This document shows, piece by piece, positions 2,470-42,563 of a stretch of 51,828 bases of DNA (the first letter of the stretch is position 1; each line of letters opens with the position of its first letter). Position numbers and translations under genes: made by a program. Source of the stretch: Minisyncoccia bacterium (GTDB taxonomy: Bacteria; Patescibacteriota; Minisyncoccia; Phycocordibacterales; UBA6065); NCBI GenBank assembly GCA_044233485.1, contig JBIIJY010000002.1:74047-125874 (forward strand). Reading direction: 5' to 3'. The notes below the pieces were generated by a model. It had not been told where the DNA came from and ran no database searches. It was given only the letters and a program-made list of their open reading frames with translations.

Positions 2470-5442
2470 TTACCTCCCTCTCCCCATCACCCCCCTCGTA
2501 ATCGGGCCAAAGAAGCCAAGAGCGGGAGTAATGTTGTTGGCTTTCTGGTAGCGGATGAGAGCAGCACGAGTAGCAGGGCCGAAGTAGAAGGTTTCGTTGC
2601 CGGGAGAGCCGAAGCCTGTCGTAGAGACAGTGAAGCCTTGTGAGTTCAAGAAGCGTTGGAGGAGTTGGACGTCTGTACCATATGAAGAGACGGTGAGACT
2701 ACGGGTAAAGGTAGTAGGTGTAATGGGTGGTGGGAGGATGTTGGTGGTCGATGAGAGACGTAGGAGTGTAGTGGTGCCTCGGGGTGTATTGACGACGACA
2801 GGAGCAGAGCGGCCGCCTCCTCCTCCGCCGGAGCGAGAGATGGTGGTGACTACGGGAGCCGGGACAACAGTCAGAGTGAATTCTTGAGTATGGTAGAAGA
2901 CTTGAGCCGCTGAGAGTGTATCAGTGATCTTGATACTGAAGGTAGAGGTAGTAGCGGTGGTTGGAGTACCACTGATGACGCCGGTACTGGTGTTGAGAGA
3001 GAGGCCTTCGGGGAGGGTGCCGGAGGTGAGGGTGTAGGTGACGGTGCCTTGATTTGCGGAAGGGGTCAGTGTCGCACTATAACCAGTACCAGCAGTAGCA
3101 GACGCTAGCGTATCAGAAGCAAAGTCAATGAGATCAAAAAAGACAAGGCGCGTGTCGGCGTCCACCACTGACAATGTACGGGTCGTTGTAGAAAACTTTA
3201 CATCTTCATTTCTTGAAAAAGCTTCTCGAGAGGCGGCAGGAGAGGTCGCATCGGTGAAACTCTCCTTCCCTATCAATGCGACCGCAGGCTCACCGTTTGT
3301 AATTGTCTCGACGTCAAAGACGCTCACTCGGAGATTCCCCGTTTCAGAAACATAGAGCAATTTGTTGTGTGAATCGTAGGCTAGACCTTCAAGATTATTT
3401 ATTTGTGAATCTGATGTACCAGAAGAATTCGTTGTAAAATTTGGCGCACCGAGAACATAACTTGCGCTCATCCCGTTGGCAATTCCTGAAGTCAGGTCGA
3501 AAATAAGAACTCGCTCATCTTCACCCACAAAGAGTAAGTCTCGTTCTGGGTCAGAAGCAAGAGCTTGTACATTACCAGTCGATGAAGCACTCGGAAAACC
3601 GAGACCAGACCAGTCTGTAAAGTTCAACTCACCGAGAATATAACTAGCCGGCATATCGTCTGTAACTCCTCCCGAAACATCGAAGACCAGCACCCCTCGG
3701 AGATTATTTCGATCAATCACATAGAGACGATCACGAACATCATCAAGGTATAAGCCGTAGGTATAAAAACGAGTTTGAGAAACGCCGCCGCCTGATGTTG
3801 TGAAATCAGGTGCTCCGATAACATTAGCTGCACTCATCCCATTGGTGATCCCGACAGACAAGTCAAACACCAGTACCCGATACAAATTATCGGCAACATA
3901 GAGCTTCTCTGTTTTTTGACTATATGCAATTCCTACAATCCCTTCAAGATTCGCTCCACTAGCCCCACCGATTGAATTCGCGTGGATTGACGTAGCCCCC
4001 AAAATATAATCGACTTGTTTATCAACAAGCTGGTTGTTTGAATTGAGATTAAAGACTTTTACATAACTCTGATCAGCAACAAAAAGTCGATGATTCACTT
4101 CGTCGAGTGCATGATATTTGAGCTCGATGAATCCTTTGGACCGATCAGCGCTCCGCTGCGTATGCCAGGTGAACTCATTGGTACCACTCGAATTTGCTTG
4201 ACCGAGCAAGTCAATTGCGGCTTCACCATTAGTAACTGTCTCGATGTCGAAAACAAGGACACGGGCAATGTCACTAACGTACAGACGATGATTCGTGCTA
4301 TCTACAAATATTGATGGCGTACCGTAACCTACAACACTGAATGTCGAGGCCGAGACTAGTCCGTTCGTGTCAAAATATAAGTCATTTGAAGTAAACGTAC
4401 TCTGGCCAAGCACATACTGAGCCGCCTCACCATTTGTAATAGTCGTCACATCGAAAACAAGTATCCGAGCTCCCTCATTGACATAGAGCTGCCTTGTCGG
4501 ACCTGACTTGTACAGACCAACCGCCGTGAAGCTGTTGACTATATTACTCGCATTTACTGTCGCATTACTACCACTCGTGAAGTTTGGTTTACCAAGTACA
4601 TATGACGCATTCATCCCATCGACGATTCCCGAGGAAAGATCAAAGACCATCACTCTAAATCCGTCACCGACATAGAGAATATTCTCATCAAAAAAGAGTC
4701 CGTATGCATCCACCAATGAATTTCTCGCCGGCCAGGCAGAGTCAAAAGTATATGAGTCTGGTTGCCCAAGTACATTTACATTTGCCATTCCATCAACGAT
4801 TCCTGTAGAAAGATCAAAGACCATCACCCGTGCAACGTCAGCTACAAAAAGATAGTCATTAACTGAATCATATGTCAGATTCGATGGCCCCATGAATTCC
4901 GAGTCAGAGCCGGCCCCTGAACCAGGGGTTACAAAATCAGTGGTTCCAAGCACATTCACTGCGGATTCTCCATTGGTAATACTTGTAACATCGAAAACTA
5001 GTACTCGAAAGTTATCAGCATCAGTAACGAAAAGTTTTGACCCATCGCCATTGAGAGCAAGTCCGGCAGGTGTATTAAACGATGACGCATTAACTTCCCC
5101 TTCCTCTCTAAAAGAAGAGAAATCATCTGCGCCTATGACGTAATCCGCAGTTTTATCGATTAGCTGATTATCTGATGAGAGGTTATAGACGAGAATACGA
5201 GTGTAGTCAGCAATATAAAGACGGTGATTGACTGTATCCATCACCATTCTGGACGGACTACTGAAATTCCTCGCCGAGAGCGCACTTCCGTACGCAAACC
5301 CATTGGTAAAGTTCGCACTTCCGTCAGCATTGAACTGCCCGAGCACATCGCTAGCCTGGAACGCGGCAAAGGACGATTGAGGAATAACAACAAAAACCGC
5401 TAGCAGAATAAAAAACAGCCTTGTAGACAGATGAAATCTCAC
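2470..5442 (-). CDS. Secreted 990-aa NHL-type beta-propeller repeat protein with an Ig-like domain and a C-terminal peptidoglycan-binding-like domain
   Basis: GTG start and a signal-peptide-like N-terminus (LFFILLAVFVVIPQSSFA). About 12 repeats of the unit xR(V/I)(L/M)VFD(L/V)..(I/V)(T/V)(N/D)G..A..VLG. He_PIG-like segment GTLPEGLSLNTSTGVISGTP, a Gly run, and a tail DVQLLQRFLNSQGF...ATRAALIRYQKANNI resembling PG_binding_1. Confidence 0.75.
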   Translation of the reverse strand: MRFHLSTRLFFILLAVFVVIPQSSFAAFQASDVLGQFNADGSANFTNGFAYGSALSARNFSSPSRMVMDTVNHRLYIADYTRILVYNLSSDNQLIDKTADYVIGADDFSSFREEGEVNASSFNTPAGLALNGDGSKLFVTDADNFRVLVFDVTSITNGESAVNVLGTTDFVTPGSGAGSDSEFMGPSNLTYDSVNDYLFVADVARVMVFDLSTGIVDGMANVNVLGQPDSYTFDSAWPARNSLVDAYGLFFDENILYVGDGFRVMVFDLSSGIVDGMNASYVLGKPNFTSGSNATVNASNIVNSFTAVGLYKSGPTRQLYVNEGARILVFDVTTITNGEAAQYVLGQSTFTSNDLYFDTNGLVSASTFSVVGYGTPSIFVDSTNHRLYVSDIARVLVFDIETVTNGEAAIDLLGQANSSGTNEFTWHTQRSADRSKGFIELKYHALDEVNHRLFVADQSYVKVFNLNSNNQLVDKQVDYILGATSIHANSIGGASGANLEGIVGIAYSQKTEKLYVADNLYRVLVFDLSVGITNGMSAANVIGAPDFTTSGGGVSQTRFYTYGLYLDDVRDRLYVIDRNNLRGVLVFDVSGGVTDDMPASYILGELNFTDWSGLGFPSASSTGNVQALASDPERDLLFVGEDERVLIFDLTSGIANGMSASYVLGAPNFTTNSSGTSDSQINNLEGLAYDSHNKLLYVSETGNLRVSVFDVETITNGEPAVALIGKESFTDATSPAASREAFSRNEDVKFSTTTRTLSVVDADTRLVFFDLIDFASDTLASATAGTGYSATLTPSANQGTVTYTLTSGTLPEGLSLNTSTGVISGTPTTATTSTFSIKITDTLSAAQVFYHTQEFTLTVVPAPVVTTISRSGGGGGGRSAPVVVNTPRGTTTLLRLSSTTNILPPPITPTTFTRSLTVSSYGTDVQLLQRFLNSQGFTVSTTGFGSPGNETFYFGPATRAALIRYQKANNITPALGFFGPITRGVMGRGR

Positions 5443-5519: not shown

Positions 5520-7448
5520 TTAGCGCACCTCAAAGCCATTTTCCGTGAGGGCGGTATATACCTTGGTCAGTGGGCTTTGTATTTCTTCTTCAGCAAGCGT
5601 ATGATCGCTCGCCTGAAATACCAGCCGGAATCCGTAGGAATACTTCACCTTGCCATCGTCACCAGCTTTTTCAAAACTATCAAACAATCGCACGCGAACA
5701 CAATGCTCCCCTGCCACGTTCATAAGCATCGATGCAAGTTCTGAAGTGTCTTGTCGCTCCCGAGCAAAAAAGGCTACGTCACGAACAGCAAATGGATAGT
5801 GTGAGTACGGTGCGTACGCCCCCTGTGGTAATACGCCAAACTCAAGTGCGTCGATAGAGGTCGCAGAATCAAGAAATGTACACTCAACTTCAAGTACCCC
5901 ACCATAGACTTCTGGGACTGGCGTAAAAGCTAGCGTAGTACATGAGAGTTTCTGCTCGCGAGCACACTCCTCAAGTGCTGCTTCAAGCGCTTTTTGTACA
6001 TCAAATCCTTTTCGCTTTTTGGGCATACCGTAGGCGATAGCCACGTGTGTCTTTTCACCTGATTGAGGAAAGACAGTTCCAACTTCAAAAAGTTTTATCT
6101 CATCGAGCCCAAGCAAGTCGGCATTACGAGTATTCTTTACAAGCGCACTCGCGAGCCCTGAGCTTAACTCTTCACGAAGACAACTTTTGTCTGTCGCGAT
6201 AGGATACGCTGTCTCAAAATACCCGCGATTGACGAGTGAATAGAGCATCACCTCAGTAAAGCCTTGTCGGAGGAAACTTGTCTTCACTGACTCCATGAGC
6301 AGAAACTCATTACTGTAGACTGGCGCACTCGCGATGGTCGGCACACTGACCCCGACTCGCTCGTAGCCGAGCAAACGCCCGACTTCTTCGACGACATCTT
6401 CTCTCCGGACGAGATCCAGTCGCCACACCGGAGCGGTGACTAAGTATTCTCTAGCACCGAGAACCTCGACTTGCACCCCTAGACGATTCATTTGAGTAGT
6501 AAATTCCTGTTCAGTGACCTCGAAACCAAGGCGTGATGAAATATACGAAAGCGAGACCTGGAATGTCGGTCGCTTAGGTGGCGTAAATACTGCCACTTGA
6601 GTATCTTGAATGGTTCCAAACTGTGGCGAAGTAAGACATTTTGTGAGGCAATTAGAGAGTTCATGCATTGCCTCGAGAGTGAGCTCATCACGGACAATAT
6701 TTTCATATCGCTTTGATGCATCGGTGCGTATTCCGTGACGCACACCAGCACGTCGGACAAGTACTCCATTGAAGCACGCCGCCATGCAGAAAATCCGCTT
6801 CGTCTGAGTGTCCACTTCAGCTCGAGCTCCACCCTTAATACCAGCTAGATCCAACGGCCCCTGCTCGTCAGCGACAACATGATCATCGGCAGTAAGAGTG
6901 ATTTCTTTTCCACCAAGCAATACTAGTTTTTCACCAGCGCGAGCTTTACGAATCGTTATGTTGCCGACTATTTTGTCTGCATCAAATGCATGTAGTGGTT
7001 GCCCGAGCTCCAGCATAACACGGTTGGTCGCGTCGACAACCGGTGAAATCACTCGAACACCGACAAGTCTCAAGAGGCGCTCTGTCTCGGGAGCACTTAC
7101 TACTGTGTCAGCGCCCGTCACCACCCGAGAGACAAAGCGGCTACAGAAATCAGCGGCTTCGATTGTCACTTTCGGAGTAGCTATTCCAGACTCACCCAGA
7201 ATCGGTGCTGAGGCCTCATGCTGAAATGGTAGGCCAGTAAAGGCATGAACTTCTCGTGCGATACCAAGAAGCGAAAGAGCATAATGATTTCGATCGGCCA
7301 GTGTTTTAACATCAAAAACTGAATCACCTTCGACAGTTTCGATCCCTTCTACCTCAAACACTCGAAAGGTAAAGAGTGTTTCGAGTGTCTGCACATCCGG
7401 CAAAGCTTGATTAAATTTTGACTGCAACCAGGAGTATGGGATTTTCAT
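5520..7448 (-). CDS. pheT: Phenylalanine--tRNA ligase beta subunit (short form, 642 aa)
   Basis: N-terminus MKIPYSWLQ..., B3/4-like VVDATNRVMLELGQPLHAFD, DLAGIKGG. The ATG overlaps the pheS stop (ATGA at 7445-7448). GGAG lies 9 nt upstream. Confidence 0.9.
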   Translation of the reverse strand: MKIPYSWLQSKFNQALPDVQTLETLFTFRVFEVEGIETVEGDSVFDVKTLADRNHYALSLLGIAREVHAFTGLPFQHEASAPILGESGIATPKVTIEAADFCSRFVSRVVTGADTVVSAPETERLLRLVGVRVISPVVDATNRVMLELGQPLHAFDADKIVGNITIRKARAGEKLVLLGGKEITLTADDHVVADEQGPLDLAGIKGGARAEVDTQTKRIFCMAACFNGVLVRRAGVRHGIRTDASKRYENIVRDELTLEAMHELSNCLTKCLTSPQFGTIQDTQVAVFTPPKRPTFQVSLSYISSRLGFEVTEQEFTTQMNRLGVQVEVLGAREYLVTAPVWRLDLVRREDVVEEVGRLLGYERVGVSVPTIASAPVYSNEFLLMESVKTSFLRQGFTEVMLYSLVNRGYFETAYPIATDKSCLREELSSGLASALVKNTRNADLLGLDEIKLFEVGTVFPQSGEKTHVAIAYGMPKKRKGFDVQKALEAALEECAREQKLSCTTLAFTPVPEVYGGVLEVECTFLDSATSIDALEFGVLPQGAYAPYSHYPFAVRDVAFFARERQDTSELASMLMNVAGEHCVRVRLFDSFEKAGDDGKVKYSYGFRLVFQASDHTLAEEEIQSPLTKVYTALTENGFEVR

Positions 7449-10738: not shown

Positions 10739-10936
10739 AGAACGTACGAAGGTACATTCTTGAAGTATGGAACAAAGTGAGCCACTTCCCAGGATCTTTC
10801 CCGCGACTCAAAACTCGCCGTCGCTCGTTTTGGTCTGGGCACCGCCTCGCTATTTTTCGAAGCGAAAAATATAGCTCCGGCGTTCAAGCCTGGACAGAAT
10901 GTACGAAGGTACATTCTTGAAGCATGGAACAAAGTG
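10739..10936 (-). other. tRNA-Thr-linked structured element, class A. Contains the antisense T-loop segment, conserved core and distal duplicate of the tRNA 3' end plus trailer. The proximal repeat copy (10896-10950) extends 14 nt into the tRNA gene, beyond this feature's end
   Basis: 55-bp direct repeat, 10739-10793 vs 10896-10950 (2 mismatches). GTTCAAGCCTGG at 10882-10893 is inverted relative to 10946-10957. Core 10800-10837 is identical to 17247-17284. Confidence 0.8.
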
Positions 10937-11009
10937 AGCCACTTCCCAGGCTTGAACTGGGGACCTACTGTTTACAAAACAGTTGCTCTACCAACTGAGC
11001 TAAAGTGGC
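10937..11009 (-). tRNA. tRNA-Thr (anticodon UGU)
   Basis: Hand-folded cloverleaf: GCCACTT TA GCTC AGTTGGTA GAGC A ACTGT TTTGTAA ACAGT AGGTC CCCAG TTCAAGC CTGGG AAGTGGC T. 73 nt, no encoded CCA. Confidence 0.85.
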
Positions 11010-15783: not shown

Positions 15784-16245
15784 TTAGTTACAGAGGGAGT
15801 TTGTGATTGCATTGGCTGGAGTATTGGTAGTCACAGACGCTCGCCCTGCTGAATCGACACAAAACGCCTGAGCAGTGTTTGTCTGAAGCTGTACTGCCAC
15901 TGCGTAGTTTGTACCATCTGAGCTGCAGGCACTGTTGGCTGCACCTCCGGCATCATCATAGGCACTCTGGATGACATTAAAAGCATTTTGATCACCAAAA
16001 ATACTTGTTCCGGCAGTAAATGTTGCAGGACAAGCTGCCTCAGCGCGAGTACCATAACTCCCATTGTTATCGAGATGATAGACACCAGCTTGAGCACGGA
16101 GATTGACGAGACCCTGACGAATAGCAGCGTCTCGCCCTCGTGCTCGAGCAGTGTTGAGTGATGATAAGACAACCCCAGAGAGCATACCAATGATCGCGAT
16201 CACCACGAGAAGTTCAATAAGCGTAAAACCTTTATGTTGAATCAT
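15784..16245 (-). CDS. Type IV pilin (short leader; major-pilin candidate)
   Basis: MIQHKG|[34 protein letters not shown]. Cys pairs in the C-terminal half. TACAAT at 16252-16257 lies 6 nt upstream of the ATG. Confidence 0.88.
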   Translation of the reverse strand: MIQHKGFTLIELLVVIAIIGMLSGVVLSSLNTARARGRDAAIRQGLVNLRAQAGVYHLDNNGSYGTRAEAACPATFTAGTSIFGDQNAFNVIQSAYDDAGGAANSACSSDGTNYAVAVQLQTNTAQAFCVDSAGRASVTTNTPANAITNSLCN

Positions 16246-16296
16246 GCAATAATTGTATCGTGAAAAAAGACATTATGAGCTCTGAATGTGGAAAAC

Positions 16297-16323
16297 AAAA
16301 AAACCCACCTAAGTGGGTTTTTT
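16297..16323 (-). terminator. Rho-independent terminator between the two pilin genes
   Basis: AAAAAAACCCAC-CTAA-GTGGGTTTTTTT. Confidence 0.75.
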
Positions 16324-16340
16324 GAGCAATGCTAAGAATT

Positions 16341-16838
16341 TTATTCAACACAAGCACCCGAAGAGTTGACCTCAGCAGTGACTCCAGCCTGGTCATTCGT
16401 TGCAATTGTTACCTGTCTCGACTTACCAGTACTGTCTATACACCAACCCGTCAGAGGATTCTCTCTTAACTGAACAACAACAGCGTATGCAGTCTGGTTC
16501 GCTGTTGAAGAACAAGCTGTAAAACCACCCTGAGTATCTGCTGCCGCGATCGCTGCCTGAACTTGTGTTTGTGCAAAAATTGTGTCAGCTGTTGTAGGAC
16601 AAGTAGCTGGAGCAACAGCCGCTGAAGCACAAGATCCGGCACCATCTCCGTAACAACCTTGAGTATCGAATGTCAATTCTGCCTGAGCTCTAATTCCAGA
16701 CAGGTTCGCTTTAATGTTAGTATCAGCCCCCTTACTTCGTGCTGTGTTCAATGAAGCAAGAACCACAGACGAAAGAATACCGATAATCGCAATCACCACG
16801 AGAAGTTCAATAAGCGTAAAACCTTTTAATAATTTCAT
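16341..16838 (-). CDS. Type IV pilin (short leader; major-pilin candidate)
   Basis: MKLLKG|[33 protein letters not shown]. Paralog of 15784..16245. Confidence 0.88.
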
Positions 16839-16974: not shown

Positions 16975-17223
16975 CTAGACCTTCTCGAACCTTGTCTTCT
17001 CTATGCCTTGATAGATGACCTTTTCAAACCACTGATCAAGAGGCCGAGTGAAAAAATTGGCGTCGGCATTCTCGTAGAGTGGCTTATAGACAACCATCCA
17101 GATGTCGTCATTTGAATGAATCGCGAGACCGACCACCTTGTAGAGGTCACCTTTATAGTGGCGGTACCGCTCTCCTGCGACAGGAACTCTCGGAGGTAAC
17201 AGTGGGATTATCCCTTTGGTCAT
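16975..17223 (-). CDS. DUF1653-like small protein
   Basis: GERYRHYKGDLYKVVGLAIHSNDDIWMVVYKPLY pattern as I remember for DUF1653. The ATG lies inside the duplicated tRNA-Asp trailer. Confidence 0.55.
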   Translation of the reverse strand: MTKGIIPLLPPRVPVAGERYRHYKGDLYKVVGLAIHSNDDIWMVVYKPLYENADANFFTRPLDQWFEKVIYQGIEKTRFEKV

Positions 17224-17401
17224 TTTTGCGCGCCCGACCGGACTTGCCCGCGACTCAAAACTCGCCGTCGCTCGTTTTGGTCTGTACCACAGGAGTACTT
17301 CTAGTTTGATAAATCAAACTATGTCGAGCACCGCCTCGCTATGTTTCGGAGCGAAACATATAGCTCCGGCGTTCAAGTCCGAAAAACACTTCGTATTTTT
17401 G
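17222..17401 (-). other. tRNA-Asp-linked structured element, class A. Contains the antisense T-arm segment, conserved core with an extra hairpin, and distal duplicate of the tRNA 3' end. The proximal repeat copy (17395-17419) extends 18 nt into the tRNA gene, beyond this feature's end
   Basis: 25-bp direct repeat, 17222-17246 = 17395-17419. GTTCAAGTCCG at 17371-17381 is inverted relative to 17412-17422. Core blocks 17247-17284 and 17329-17377 match the Thr copy 38/38 and 46/49. Confidence 0.8.
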
Positions 17402-17477
17402 CGCGCCCGACCGGACTTGAACCGGCGACCTCTCCCGTGACAGGGGAGCGCTCTAACCAAAACTGAGCTACGGGCGC
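17402..17477 (-). tRNA. tRNA-Asp (anticodon GUC)
   Basis: GCGCCCG TA GCTC AGTTTTGGTTA GAGC G CTCCC CTGTCAC GGGAG AGGTC GCCGG TTCAAGT CCGGT CGGGCGC G. 76 nt, no encoded CCA. Confidence 0.85.
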
Positions 17478-26602: not shown

Positions 26603-26694
26603 GGAGACGTGGCTGAGCTGGCCGAAAGCGCCTCATTGCTAACGAGGTATCCCGCCTTAAAACGGGATCGGGGGTTCGAATCCCCCCGTCTCCG
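26603..26694 (+). tRNA. tRNA-Ser (anticodon GCU), class II with a long variable arm
   Basis: GGAGACG TG GCTG..AGC G CCTCA TTGCTAA CGAGG TATCCCGCCTTAAAACGGGATC GGGGG TTCGAAT CCCCC CGTCTCC G. There is an A31:C39 mismatch in my fold. No encoded CCA. Confidence 0.8.
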
Positions 26695-26846
26695 CAGGAG
26701 AAAATGTAACAGCGTTACATTTTAGAGAAAGCTCTAGGAGAGCTTTCGTGGGGGATTCGAAAACCTTTTGCGTATAATTTGCAATTTCCTGAGGTAAATT
26801 ATCCAAAAGGTGTACTGATCCTGTAAGGATCGAATCCCCAGGCACC
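26695..26846 (+). other. tRNA-Ser(GCU)-linked structured element, class B
   Basis: Hairpins at 26701-26723 and 26727-26747. GGGGGATTCGAA at 26750-26761 is the exact reverse complement of T-loop/3' T-stem 26675-26686. Nested hairpin 26764-26810. CGAATCCCC at 26831-26839 is a degenerate second copy of the tRNA 3' end. Confidence 0.7.
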
Positions 26847-26869: not shown

Positions 26870-26956
26870 GGAGGCGTGGATGAGTGGTTTAAATCAACGG
26901 TTTACTAAACCGTCGTTCCTTTACCGGAACCGTGAGTTCGAATCTCACCGCCTCCG
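26870..26956 (+). tRNA. Class II tRNA, Ser-type (G73, long variable arm). My fold puts ACU at positions 34-36
   Basis: GGAGGCG TG GAT..ATC A ACGGT TTACTAA ACCGT CGTTCCTTTACCGGAACC GTGAG TTCGAAT CTCAC CGCCTCC G. The 5-bp anticodon stem is perfect. The anticodon call needs tRNAscan-SE. Confidence 0.7.
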
Positions 26957-27131
26957 CATAATAATGAGCTTGCGAATATATTTTGCGTGAGGTGAGAAAG
27001 TGCTGGGAGCACTTTCGTGTGAGATTCGAAAGACGGAATAAAAATTTTGAGCTCAAAATTTTATGAGTCGGGGTCGCGAGCTCCGAGTTGCAACGAGGAG
27101 ACTTGTGACCGAATCTCCTACCGCCTCCGCA
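26957..27131 (+). other. tRNA-Ser-linked structured element, class B
   Basis: Hairpin 26996-27016. GTGAGATTCGAA at 27019-27030 is the exact reverse complement of 26937-26948. 22-nt palindrome at 27041-27062. CGAATCTC at 27110-27117 plus ACCGCCTCCGCA at 27120-27131 (identical to 26947-26958). Confidence 0.75.
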
Positions 27132-42153: not shown

Positions 42154-42213
42154 AAAAAACTCCGCCCTACACAGACAGACTTTTACGTTCTGTACATGTA
42201 GGGCGGAGTTTTT
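42154..42213. terminator. Long-stem bidirectional terminator downstream of rnpB
   Basis: AAAAAACTCCGCCCTACA-(25 nt)-TGTAGGGCGGAGTTTTT. Confidence 0.7.
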
Positions 42214-42216
42214 CTT

Positions 42217-42563
42217 GAGCACATCTATAAGCCGAATTCTGTACCATCATATCTTCATATGCTGGCAGTAAGCATTTATCTGGGATGACCATTACTGGTC
42301 ACCTCGAGCGGTTCTCTCGTACGTATTGCTACGCTTGAGCACGACCTTGCATGGGAGTAAGGATTTAGCCGTTGCACCTTGTAGTTTCCCACAAGCTCAC
42401 CCTGACGGGTGTCCTGCCCTTTCGAGCACAGACGTCTCTGTTCGCACCTCGCACATTACTGTGGATGGGTATTACCCACTACCGCACTCTTCCTTACGGA
42501 AGCCAAGTTCGGACTTTCCTCTCCAGAGAGTTTCCCCTCCAAAGCGCTTACTCAATGTGCTAA
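42217..42563 (-). ncRNA. rnpB: RNase P RNA (bacterial type A)
   Basis: On the reverse strand: GGAGAGGAAAGTCCGAAC (P4 5' strand) near the 5' end and ACAGAATTCGGCTTATAG (P4 3' strand) near the 3' end. P1 pairing AGCACAT/ATGTGCT. GGGAAAC and GAAAGGGCAGG loops. The ends are approximate. Confidence 0.85.

Follow-up and report, generated by a model that had tools for sequence, protein, structure and literature searches.

What kind of genetic element can lie directly behind a tRNA gene and carry, in antisense, part of the sequence of that same gene? The question is raised by E1, a non-coding segment located behind the tRNA-Ser(GCU) gene in a stretch of 51,828 nucleotides from a Minisyncoccia bacterium (contig JBIIJY010000002.1, positions 74,047 to 125,874; the whole of this stretch is called the window). 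An initial annotation, made from the sequence alone, had described in E1 three hairpins of simple build, a nested hairpin, an antisense copy of a T-loop segment and a degenerate copy of the tRNA 3' end, and a check of the sequence found all of them in place (Table 1). The pattern is far beyond chance. We consider it on balance probable that E1 is a copy of a mobile but non-autonomous cassette that inserts specifically at tRNA-gene 3' ends in the Patescibacteria (candidate phyla radiation, CPR), and this copy is probably immobile now.

E1 belongs to a superfamily of non-coding, hairpin-rich units of 100-200 bp, which are described here on the strand of the tRNA. A unit is composed, in this order, of S (the tRNA sequence from the T-loop to the 3' end), a trailer with a hairpin (t), S'a (antisense of the trailer and of the acceptor 3' strand), the hairpin P2 in the context GA-P2-GT(G), S'b (antisense of the T-stem 3' strand and of the T-loop, or antisense T), a core and a further sense copy of S (S-right). 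In E1 the antisense-acceptor/trailer arm, long in most members, is reduced to the pentanucleotide GGAGA; a matching GCAGGAG arrangement is found at tRNA-Ser(GCU) in L013 and L009 (the L-numbers are labels of the related loci that were fetched). The hairpin t of E1 is weak, with two G-C pairs and four T, and was not called by the terminator scan of the window. P2 is placed exactly between the antisense-acceptor and antisense-T segments. The core is of type 1 (P4-GTACTG-P5, loop TGTAA), and P4 of other members additionally contains a tandem G-A motif. S-right, decayed in E1, is intact in other members such as L013, L016 and L018. Folded as RNA, E1 alone reaches a z value of -5.5, and -8.0 when the fold is started from the T-arm of the tRNA. 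In the predicted fold a 12-bp helix, formed by the T-loop and T-stem 3' strand (26675-26686) with the antisense T, closes a four-way junction with the acceptor/GGAGA mini-hairpin, the A/T hairpin and the GAAAG hairpin as arms.

That E1 is a real, repeated and tRNA-associated element, as the initial annotation had proposed, was confirmed by the further copies, of which many were found. A degenerate search pattern (P2 + GTG + NNN + GAYTYGAA) matches 19 GTDB species representatives, 18 of them Patescibacteria (Paceibacteria, Saccharibacteria, Taylor- and Lloydbacteria, Minisyncoccia); the single match outside the CPR, in a Crocinitomicaceae genome, is chance-like. Eighteen metagenome contigs are also matched. 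The covariance model suggested for the class of E1 could be built and finds 48 copies, nearly all located 5-48 nt behind a co-oriented tRNA gene or as later units in arrays, and the orientation of the unit is always that of the tRNA. Copies were aligned in two rounds, 17 at first (alignment A1) and later the 48 recovered by the covariance model. In the alignment of 48 copies, 93.7% of the paired cells are complementary vs 68% in shuffles, compensatory changes on both sides are found in 32 of the 36 pairs, and the covariation score is 0.497 vs at most 0.116 when the partners are slid. Covarying pairs are distributed over all three stems (7/9 in P2, 16/16 in P4 and 5/5 in P5), P5 being paired in 98% of cells. 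Tandem units occur in L013, L029, L022 and L010, while L038 holds a truncated copy and the S-right of E1 a decayed one. Over the window, the gathering score of Rfam 15 was reached only by tRNAs and RNase P, and E-value scans of E1/E2 and of the Asp unit returned only noise, including a 20-bit match to C0719 on the minus strand that we dismissed. The phage, virus and plasmid collections IMG/VR, INPHARED and PLSDB contained no match to the unit, and a full-text literature search returned no description of the family. As far as the searched literature and libraries go, the superfamily is undescribed, and it is almost confined to the Patescibacteria.

Some copies depart from the usual position. 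Three units have no detectable upstream tRNA (L016 1-152, L022 300-401 and L039 380-475); those of L016 and L022 are preceded instead by a conserved TTCGAACTTTGT..ACACCGCA, without an Rfam match there. On the reverse strand of L038, the truncated unit (4885-4977) stands behind a decayed tRNA 3' remnant and is followed, from about 150 nt past it, by two paralogous small open reading frames (ORFs) of about 130 aa, each with its own terminator. Cargo-carrying or autonomous versions were looked for and set aside: all the units found are compact, and that of L038 is truncated, not interrupted.

The window contains four tRNA genes in total (Thr, Asp and two Ser), and a unit stands behind all four. 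The same architecture of antisense T, structured core and degenerate tRNA 3'-end copy had been noted at these genes, and it is indeed common to E1, to E2 (behind tRNA-Ser(ACU)) and to the Thr and Asp units. The fold of E2 resembles that of E1; the two share GAGAAAG-N4-N3-N4-CTTTCGTG with two compensatory pair changes, and the P2 motif occurs twice in the window vs 0 times in 100 shuffles. The initial annotation had separated a class A (Thr, Asp) from a class B (E1, E2), and this separation did not survive. Beside the type-1 core, a type-2 core (AGRCGGAGC.. then GGGGTCGCGRG-hairpin-YGTGACC) was recognized in E2, L001, L008, L017 and L037, and the Thr and Asp cores are type-2-like, without P2. 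The unit at tRNA-Phe in L004 joins a class-B P2 hairpin and antisense T to a class-A-type core, and E2 combines the class-B P2 with a GGGGTCGCG..GTGACC module related to class A. Because these two units mix modules, classes A and B are combinations of the modules of one superfamily. Co-direction with the tRNA, taken as a trait that set class B apart, does not distinguish the classes either, since the Thr and Asp units are also downstream of their tRNAs and co-directional with them, on the minus strand. Only 6 kb separates the Thr and Asp copies, whose cores have 96% identity: 3 of 81 positions differ, two of which form one compensatory pair. Of the 6 variable positions in antisense T, 3 differ between the two units, and each segment fits its own tRNA. 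This likeness reflects a recent spread inside this genome. The Asp core also holds an extra hairpin of 43 nt (TCGACATAGTTTGATTTATCAAACTAG..., 17285-17327, minus strand), absent from the otherwise 96%-identical Thr copy.

Table 1. Features of the four tRNA genes of the window and of the units behind them. Positions are those of the window; for minus-strand parts they are given in the direction of the tRNA.
Feature	Position	Strand	Evidence or remark
tRNA-Ser(GCU), anchor of E1	26603-26695	+	ARAGORN; Rfam tRNA, 53.7 bits
E1, whole unit	26697-26846	+	behind tRNA-Ser(GCU)
S of tRNA-Ser(GCU), T-loop to 3' end	26675-26696	+	copied in antisense and in sense within E1
E1 GGAGA, antisense of acceptor 3' strand TCTCC (26689-26693)	26697-26701	+	seen in the fold; directly 3' of the tRNA
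E1 hairpin t, AAAATGTAAC-AGC-GTTACATTTT	26701-26723	+	A/T-rich, terminator-like; sequence and fold
E1 P2 hairpin, GAAAGCTCT-AGG-AGAGCTTTC	26727-26747	+	GAAAG-NNNN-NNN-NNNN-CTTTC; GA before, GT(G) after; conserved
E1 antisense T (S'b), GGGGGATTCGAA	26750-26761	+	exact reverse complement of TTCGAATCCCCC, 26675-26686 (tRNA nt 54-65)
E1 P4, long two-part hairpin	26764-26810	+	outer stem CCTTTTG/CAAAAGG, internal loop, A/T stem; RNAalifold
E1 single-stranded junction GTACTG	26812-26817	+	A, C and G positions invariant in A1 (17 copies)
E1 P5, GATCC-TGTAA-GGATC	26817-26831	+	small hairpin, conserved loop (C)TGTAA(G); 3' strand continues into the T-loop copy
E1 S-right, decayed sense copy of tRNA 3' segment, TCGAATCCCC	26830-26846	+	CGAATCCCC at 26831-26839, then diverged: AGGCACC in place of CCGTCTCC
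tRNA-Ser(ACU), anchor of E2	26870-26957	+	ARAGORN and Rfam
E2, whole unit	26984-27131	+	covariance model, 57 bits; behind tRNA-Ser(ACU)
E2 antisense acceptor, TGCGTGAGGTGA	26984-26995	+	
E2 P2 hairpin	26996-27016	+	
E2 antisense T, GTGAGATTCGAA	27019-27030	+	
E2 type-2 core, AGACGGA..GGGGTCGCGAG-hairpin-CTTGTGACC	27031-27109	+	type-2 module pattern
E2 S-right, CGAATCTCctACCGCCTCCGCA	27110-27131	+	
tRNA-Thr(UGU)	10936-11009	-	ARAGORN
Thr unit (class A of the initial annotation)	10739-10894	-	filled vs empty alignment with L044
Thr antisense T, TCCAGGCTTGAAC, 13 nt	10894-10882	-	
Thr core, 82 nt, then AAAGAT	10881-10800	-	
Thr duplicate of tRNA 3' part and native trailer hairpin, 54-55 nt	10793-10739	-	
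tRNA-Asp(GUC)	17401-17477	-	ARAGORN
Asp unit	17222-17380	-	sequence comparison
Asp antisense T, GGACTTGAAC	17380-17371	-	
Asp core, with 43-nt extra hairpin	17370-17247	-	
Asp S-right, CAAGTCCGGTCGGGCGCGCAAAAAT	17246-17222	-	

The dependence of the antisense segments on the adjoining tRNA was examined by a scaffold-independent scan, in which each tRNA of the fetched loci was compared with the antisense of its own nt 54-65. This antisense was found 40-90 nt downstream of 33 of the 48 non-redundant tRNAs, with a 12-mer that is perfect in 20 of the 33 units and within one edit in 30. At least 12 isoacceptors are covered (four Ser, Leu, Tyr, Val, Trp, Phe, three Arg, Gly, Thr and Asp). Among 47 tRNAs of related loci, 29 have their own antisense 12-mer (edit distance of at most 1) within 140 nt downstream, vs none upstream and five, at the same distance, when the tRNAs were swapped. 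The unit of L009 has a T-stem that does not match its adjoining tRNA. The description of the antisense segment as a copy of the T segment is exact for that part; the antisense normally extends further, to the acceptor 3' strand and the trailer, and in E1 the GGAGA pentanucleotide had been missed. In about 20 of 30 units the sequence from tRNA nt 66 through the trailer to P2 forms one palindrome with arms of 20-30 bp, almost free of mismatches (421 Watson-Crick vs 9 G-U pairs in 19 such hairpins), and its inner sequence differs at each locus. P2 splits the antisense exactly at tRNA nt 65|66, which is where nt 8-48 leave the stack of acceptor and T-arm in a real tRNA.

S-right is poorly kept in comparison, with perfect 10-mers in only 10 of 33 units and small indels that are common just after the T-loop GAA. 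The decay of S-right beside a well-kept antisense indicates that the complementarity to the upstream, functional tRNA is maintained, not a helix with the downstream copy. Of the two partners considered earlier for the antisense, the T-arm and the downstream copy, it is the upstream tRNA that the antisense tracks, and far better than the decaying downstream copy. Two Arg-tRNA units in L010 (~1470-1500 on the minus strand and 6720-6760 on the plus strand) have a sense T-loop copy split by the same 14-nt insert AAGCGTACTCG(G/C)GG, and several Ser units have a 2-nt insert after GAA (CGAAATTCTC); such inserts may be the footprint of a junction. For annotation it matters that the partial tRNA copies and antisense tRNA segments found behind CPR tRNA genes belong to the units and are neither pseudogenes nor assembly errors.

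The initial annotation had suggested no function for E1; comparison of filled and empty sites provides the evidence of insertion. The locus L044 comes from a close relative (76% identity of a neighbouring ORF, equal synteny), carries an identical tRNA-Thr gene and shares the trailer hairpin and the downstream flank, with no element between them. Relative to L044, the window has an additional element of ~101 nt (13 nt of antisense T, the 82-nt core and AAAGAT), plus a 54-nt second copy of CCTGGG..GGCTCA with the native trailer hairpin. Since the native trailer is also present in the empty site of L044, the duplicated block is target sequence and was not imported; as to which of the two repeat copies is the original, one difference from L044 favours each. 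Four more distant relatives with the synteny S2-Ts-ORF-tRNA-Thr are also without the element. At tRNA-Ser(CGA) of near-identical genomes, between identical flanks, one unit is found in L032 and L018, two in L037 and three in L004; the indel boundaries are inside S, and the last S is followed by the same flank in each genome. L021, whose neighbouring protein is 83% identical, is virtually the same as the window in tRNA-Ser(GCU), in the region upstream of this gene and in the spacer before tRNA-Ser(ACU), and holds a different, type-2 unit at the position of E1. The near-identity of the Thr and Asp cores, the tandem, truncated and decayed copies and the T-stem mismatch of the L009 unit agree with insertion. 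Judged from these alignments, the units are shown to be inserted directly behind an intact tRNA with S on both sides (20-54 bp), to stack head-to-tail, and to be gained, lost and replaced between close relatives.

Other sequences were seen beside tRNA-Thr in these loci. In L044 (6330-6643) a different insertion stands in front of the intact tRNA-Thr gene: 15 nt that duplicate the 5' end of the tRNA (TGCCACTTTAGCTCA), then a G+C-rich hairpin and a GIY-YIG ORF of 79 aa. More than one kind of element that duplicates what it displaces is therefore drawn to the tRNA genes of this lineage. In the Taylorbacteria locus L042 (11908-12170) the orthologous tRNA-Thr is followed by ~250 nt of G+C-rich, structured-looking sequence unrelated to the units.

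A direct repeat of the tRNA 3' segment starting from the T-loop, which the units display, is the classical mark of tRNA-integrating elements, as Williams reportedly set out in 2002. The units could in this case be attL/attR scars of phages, plasmids or islands that had integrated in the T-loop and have since lost their interior, and tandem arrays are known at such sites. We hold this to be the least probable of the explanations weighed here. The same interior of ~100-150 bp, bounded in the same way, is found again and again, at dozens of loci and behind 12 or more tRNA types, without an integrase in the window or recurring among the neighbour ORFs checked, and without a match in the phage, plasmid and viral collections. 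Moreover, the Thr duplicate includes the native, lineage-specific trailer, copied from the target and not attP-borne, and the tRNA-specific antisense segments are left unexplained by scars.

The position at tRNA 3' ends and the hairpin S-t-S', with A- and T-tracts resembling a bidirectional terminator, would also suit an immobile cis-element of the host, either an extended bidirectional terminator or a structure for 3' processing or stability that includes the acceptor strand. A G+C-containing hairpin with a T-run right after the gene is present as the inner t in most loci, E1 having only the weak form noted above; it covers only ~25 nt of the unit. P2, the antisense T, P4, P5 and the second copy of the tRNA end, all beyond the T-run, remain without a role in such a structure, the empty orthologous sites have ordinary short terminators that are evidently functional, and the number of units varies. 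We therefore regard a cis-element as very improbable.

The near-perfect palindromes of locus-specific sequence invite another explanation, namely a local rearrangement. Fold-back replication, with template switching, together with unequal crossing-over would act on the palindrome at the tRNA end to create and multiply the inverted and direct copies, and gene conversion would spread the scaffold. It would account for the tandem duplication of units in L004 and for an antisense that follows the adjoining tRNA. However, the same scaffold is present at unlinked tRNAs of other identity and in other CPR classes, and movement between sites is therefore required; the likeness of the Thr and Asp copies also speaks against a purely local origin, which we find quite improbable.

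The covariation itself would be expected of a structured non-coding RNA (ncRNA). Transcribed from the tRNA locus by read-through or from its own promoter, such an RNA would fold its antisense strand, P2 and sense copy into a mimic of the acceptor/T-arm minihelix of the tRNA, which RNase P, RNase Z or the CCA-adding enzyme would process. Its conserved P4/P5 portion would have a function, perhaps that of a decoy or of a guide RNA directed at the tRNA or at the tRNA gene. The single-stranded motifs GTACTG, the TGTAA loop and the GA/GTG around P2 are invariant, the location of P2 at nt 65|66 makes the fold topologically tRNA-like, the ratio of G-U to A-C on the tRNA strand is 2:1, and L007 and L011 keep the tRNA-plus-unit block and not its flanks. 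Precedents exist in the dicistronic tRNA-snoRNA genes and in the guide-RNA arrays of CPR bacteria (PMC12045711). On the other hand, a strong bidirectional terminator-like hairpin with a T-run separates the tRNA from the unit in most loci, and the sense copy needed for the minihelix has decayed in most units. G-U represents ~2% of the pairs and is outnumbered by other mismatches, units are missing at the orthologous tRNAs of relatives and vary in number, and there is neither an Rfam match nor a promoter signal, the promoter search giving one weak minus-strand match, no more than in shuffles. An ncRNA as the primary identity of the units appears unlikely to us.

Four structural identities were tried and rejected. 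A hammerhead was discarded by eye, the CUGA-hairpin-UCGAA being without the GA and GAAA cores, as was a box C/D RNA, CUGA being present in many units without a C box. The topology of two guides around a hairpin fits an H/ACA-like pocket, but no target nucleotide is unpaired at 65|66 and bacteria are without the ribonucleoprotein. P2 is not a relic of the anticodon arm, its 3-nt loops being unconserved and without match to the anticodons.

According to the mobile-cassette reading, which we prefer, the cassette would consist of a hairpin scaffold (P2 followed by P4-GTACTG-P5 or by the GGGGTCGCG..GTGACC module), of stretches complementary to the 3' portion of the target tRNA and of a flanking direct repeat of that portion. 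While the intermediate is single-stranded, the antisense segments would base-pair with S and in this way set the site of insertion or excision. A trans-acting enzyme, presumably encoded elsewhere, would make cuts staggered by the length of S. As the duplication leaves the tRNA intact, insertion would be nearly harmless. The Pfam scans of 40 ORFs detected no recombinase, transposase, reverse transcriptase (RT) or Cas1 in the 51.8-kb window, and the 98 neighbour ORFs (27 loci, up to 3 kb from a unit) contained no recurring mobility gene among the 25 most frequent of 87 Pfam families; the recurrent families are housekeeping ones (PilM, NUDIX, TsaD, RecJ). The units are non-coding and non-autonomous. 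On the tRNA strand the stem cells contain 28 G-U vs 14 A-C of 1248, with other mismatches commoner than G-U, numbers too small for a strand call. The scarcity of G-U and the near-perfect palindromes of 20-30 bp point weakly to DNA rather than RNA.

Several observations weigh against the cassette. No enzyme for its movement was found in the window or among the neighbour ORFs scanned, no excised or circular form was seen, and the units found include no autonomous protein-coding relative. Two circularly permuted units, S-t-S'-core and t-S'-core-S, fit the data equally. The duplications of 20-54 bp exceed those of classical transposases. The reading does not account for how the antisense comes to suit a new tRNA, for which the target may be copied, the two inverted arms may undergo gene conversion, or selection may act. 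The tRNA-plus-unit block of L007 and L011 is ~95% identical between flanks that have wholly diverged on both sides, which fits a selected host function too. The occupation of all four tRNAs of the window is high for a parasite in a genome of ~0.7 Mb. Finally, the test of G-U against A-C is not decisive for the strand, and an RNA intermediate is possible.

A bolder view, which we rate as unlikely, is that the units represent a natural, programmable, nucleic-acid-guided insertion system. The scaffold would recruit a CPR enzyme, S' and S would pair with both strands of the target and set staggered cuts at the ends of S, and the guide would be re-copied for each target. Pairing would switch from the internal S':S helix to a double invasion of the target duplex, and the intermediate would be either RNA (SINE-like or bridge-RNA-like) or folded single-stranded DNA. 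A re-copied guide would explain the perfect matches to 12 or more tRNAs and the locus-specific palindromes.

The gene content of the window is that of a typical CPR chromosome (PheRS, S2, EF-Ts, RF1, pilins, glycosyltransferases, RNR, MurJ), and its S2 protein shares at most 60% identity with named sequences of Paceibacterota and Taylorbacteria. Pilin-like genes with an N-terminal methylation motif number at least four and are joined by a prepilin peptidase (295-2448, 15784-16838), a set consistent with the type-IV-pilus and DNA-uptake machinery that is typical of CPR bacteria. The RNase P RNA (class A; 42212-42563, minus strand) scores 119.5 bits vs a gathering score of 100 and is a divergent CPR version. 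A tRNA-Ser with the anticodon ACU (A34) is kept beside tRNA-Ser(GCU) in several Paceibacteria (L007 3206-3293, L008 4445-4532, L009 1026-1116, L011 1803-1890), ANN anticodons other than ACG being unusual in bacteria. CCA is not encoded at the 3' ends of the tRNAs of the window (10935, 17401, 26695, 26957) nor in most related loci; CA comes next after the discriminator base in most of them, and the class-B duplicated segment usually stops right after this CA.

If the cassette reading is true, the streamlined genomes of CPR bacteria would host tiny mobile elements that colonise most kinds of tRNA gene without damage. The choice of target would be held in 12-25 nt of complementary sequence, kept matched to the own tRNA, and not in a protein. 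The units would also offer a new marker of strain-level variation in CPR genomes. The conserved motifs and the covariance model would give a handle for finding the enzyme responsible.

Among known systems, the islands, prophages and CIMEs that integrate in tRNA genes are comparable in their position 3' of an intact tRNA, in the flanking direct repeat from the T-loop and in their tandem accretion. They differ from the units, which have 100-200 bp, no integrase in the window or recurring nearby, a repeat that includes the native trailer, and internal antisense copies of the target. Integron cassettes share the head-to-tail arrays and the unit-wise gain and loss at one anchored site (one, two or three units). 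The attC site, an imperfect inverted repeat (R''-L''...L'-R'), is active when folded as a single strand and then shows extra-helical features; its layout can be compared with S'a-P2-S'b-[P4,P5]-S. However, the anchor of the units is a tRNA gene and not attI, they are without ORF and without IntI, the GTTRRRY core is absent, the arms are tRNA sequence (GTTCGAA, GTTCAAG), and the window encodes no tyrosine recombinase.

A long duplication recalls Cas1-type integration or target-primed reverse transcription. Cas1-type integration duplicates a long target, of 14-15 bp for casposons and a whole repeat of ~30 bp for CRISPR. Casposons at tRNA 3' ends and CRISPR arrays resemble the units in this and in the topology S-unit-S-unit-S, whereas the units have no terminal inverted repeats, show a variable duplication length and insert a conserved structured scaffold instead of a captured spacer, with no Cas1 in the window. 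As in SINE-like retroelements, the duplication is long and its length varies, while one of its ends is fixed. The S repeat begins inside the T-loop or beside it; its other end coincides with that of the tRNA in class B, lies 5 nt past it at Asp and ~38 nt past it, after the trailer hairpin, at Thr. No RT was found in the window. A classical MITE was rejected, the unit ends (t/S'a or antisense T vs P5 or AAAGAT) not being inverted repeats and the duplication of 20-54 bp being variable.

The IS110 bridge RNA and the TIGR-Tas systems resemble the units in their two guide segments flanking a hairpin and in their programmable look across many targets, and TIGR systems occur in CPR (PMC12045711). 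Their guides read opposite DNA strands over 4-10 nt and lie beside a protein gene, whereas the two antisense segments of a unit are directed at one and the same strand, with no linked protein gene. A TIGR-Tas array proper, with dual-spacer RNAs of 36 nt and a Nop-domain Tas gene, was rejected for the units, which have 100-200 nt, same-strand guides and no Tas gene nearby.

The IS200/IS605 group (PATEs, and REP/BIME with RAYT) also consists of small, strand-specific hairpin elements, and the guide DNA of IS608 is the closest documented parallel to the pairing proposed for the units. The transposase of IS608 binds subterminal hairpins, and the cleavage and target sites are read by pairing with a guide DNA at the foot of the hairpin (PMC3201880). 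In the units P2 is near the left end and P5 near the right one, both covarying; units always point the same way as the tRNA, and the sequence on the 5' side of the P2 foot pairs with the tRNA end, which forms the left flank. No Y1/HUH gene (TnpA/RAYT) is present among the 40 ORFs of the window or the 25 most frequent of the 87 neighbour families. Natural guides of the group have 4-5 nt, vs 12-25 nt in the units, where they also continue 3' of the hairpin, and the group inserts 3' of a 4-5-nt target without duplication, vs 20-54 bp duplicated by the units. An IS608 engineered with an extended pairing of 12-17 nt integrates at a chosen site (PMC5934647); if our reading is true, the units would be a natural case of long-guide, sequence-programmed insertion, so far reached only by such engineering. 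Since each of the families compared fails at least one defining feature, we file the element under none of them: the kind, a non-autonomous site-specific mobile element, is known, and what is new is the architecture and the apparent sequence-programmed targeting.

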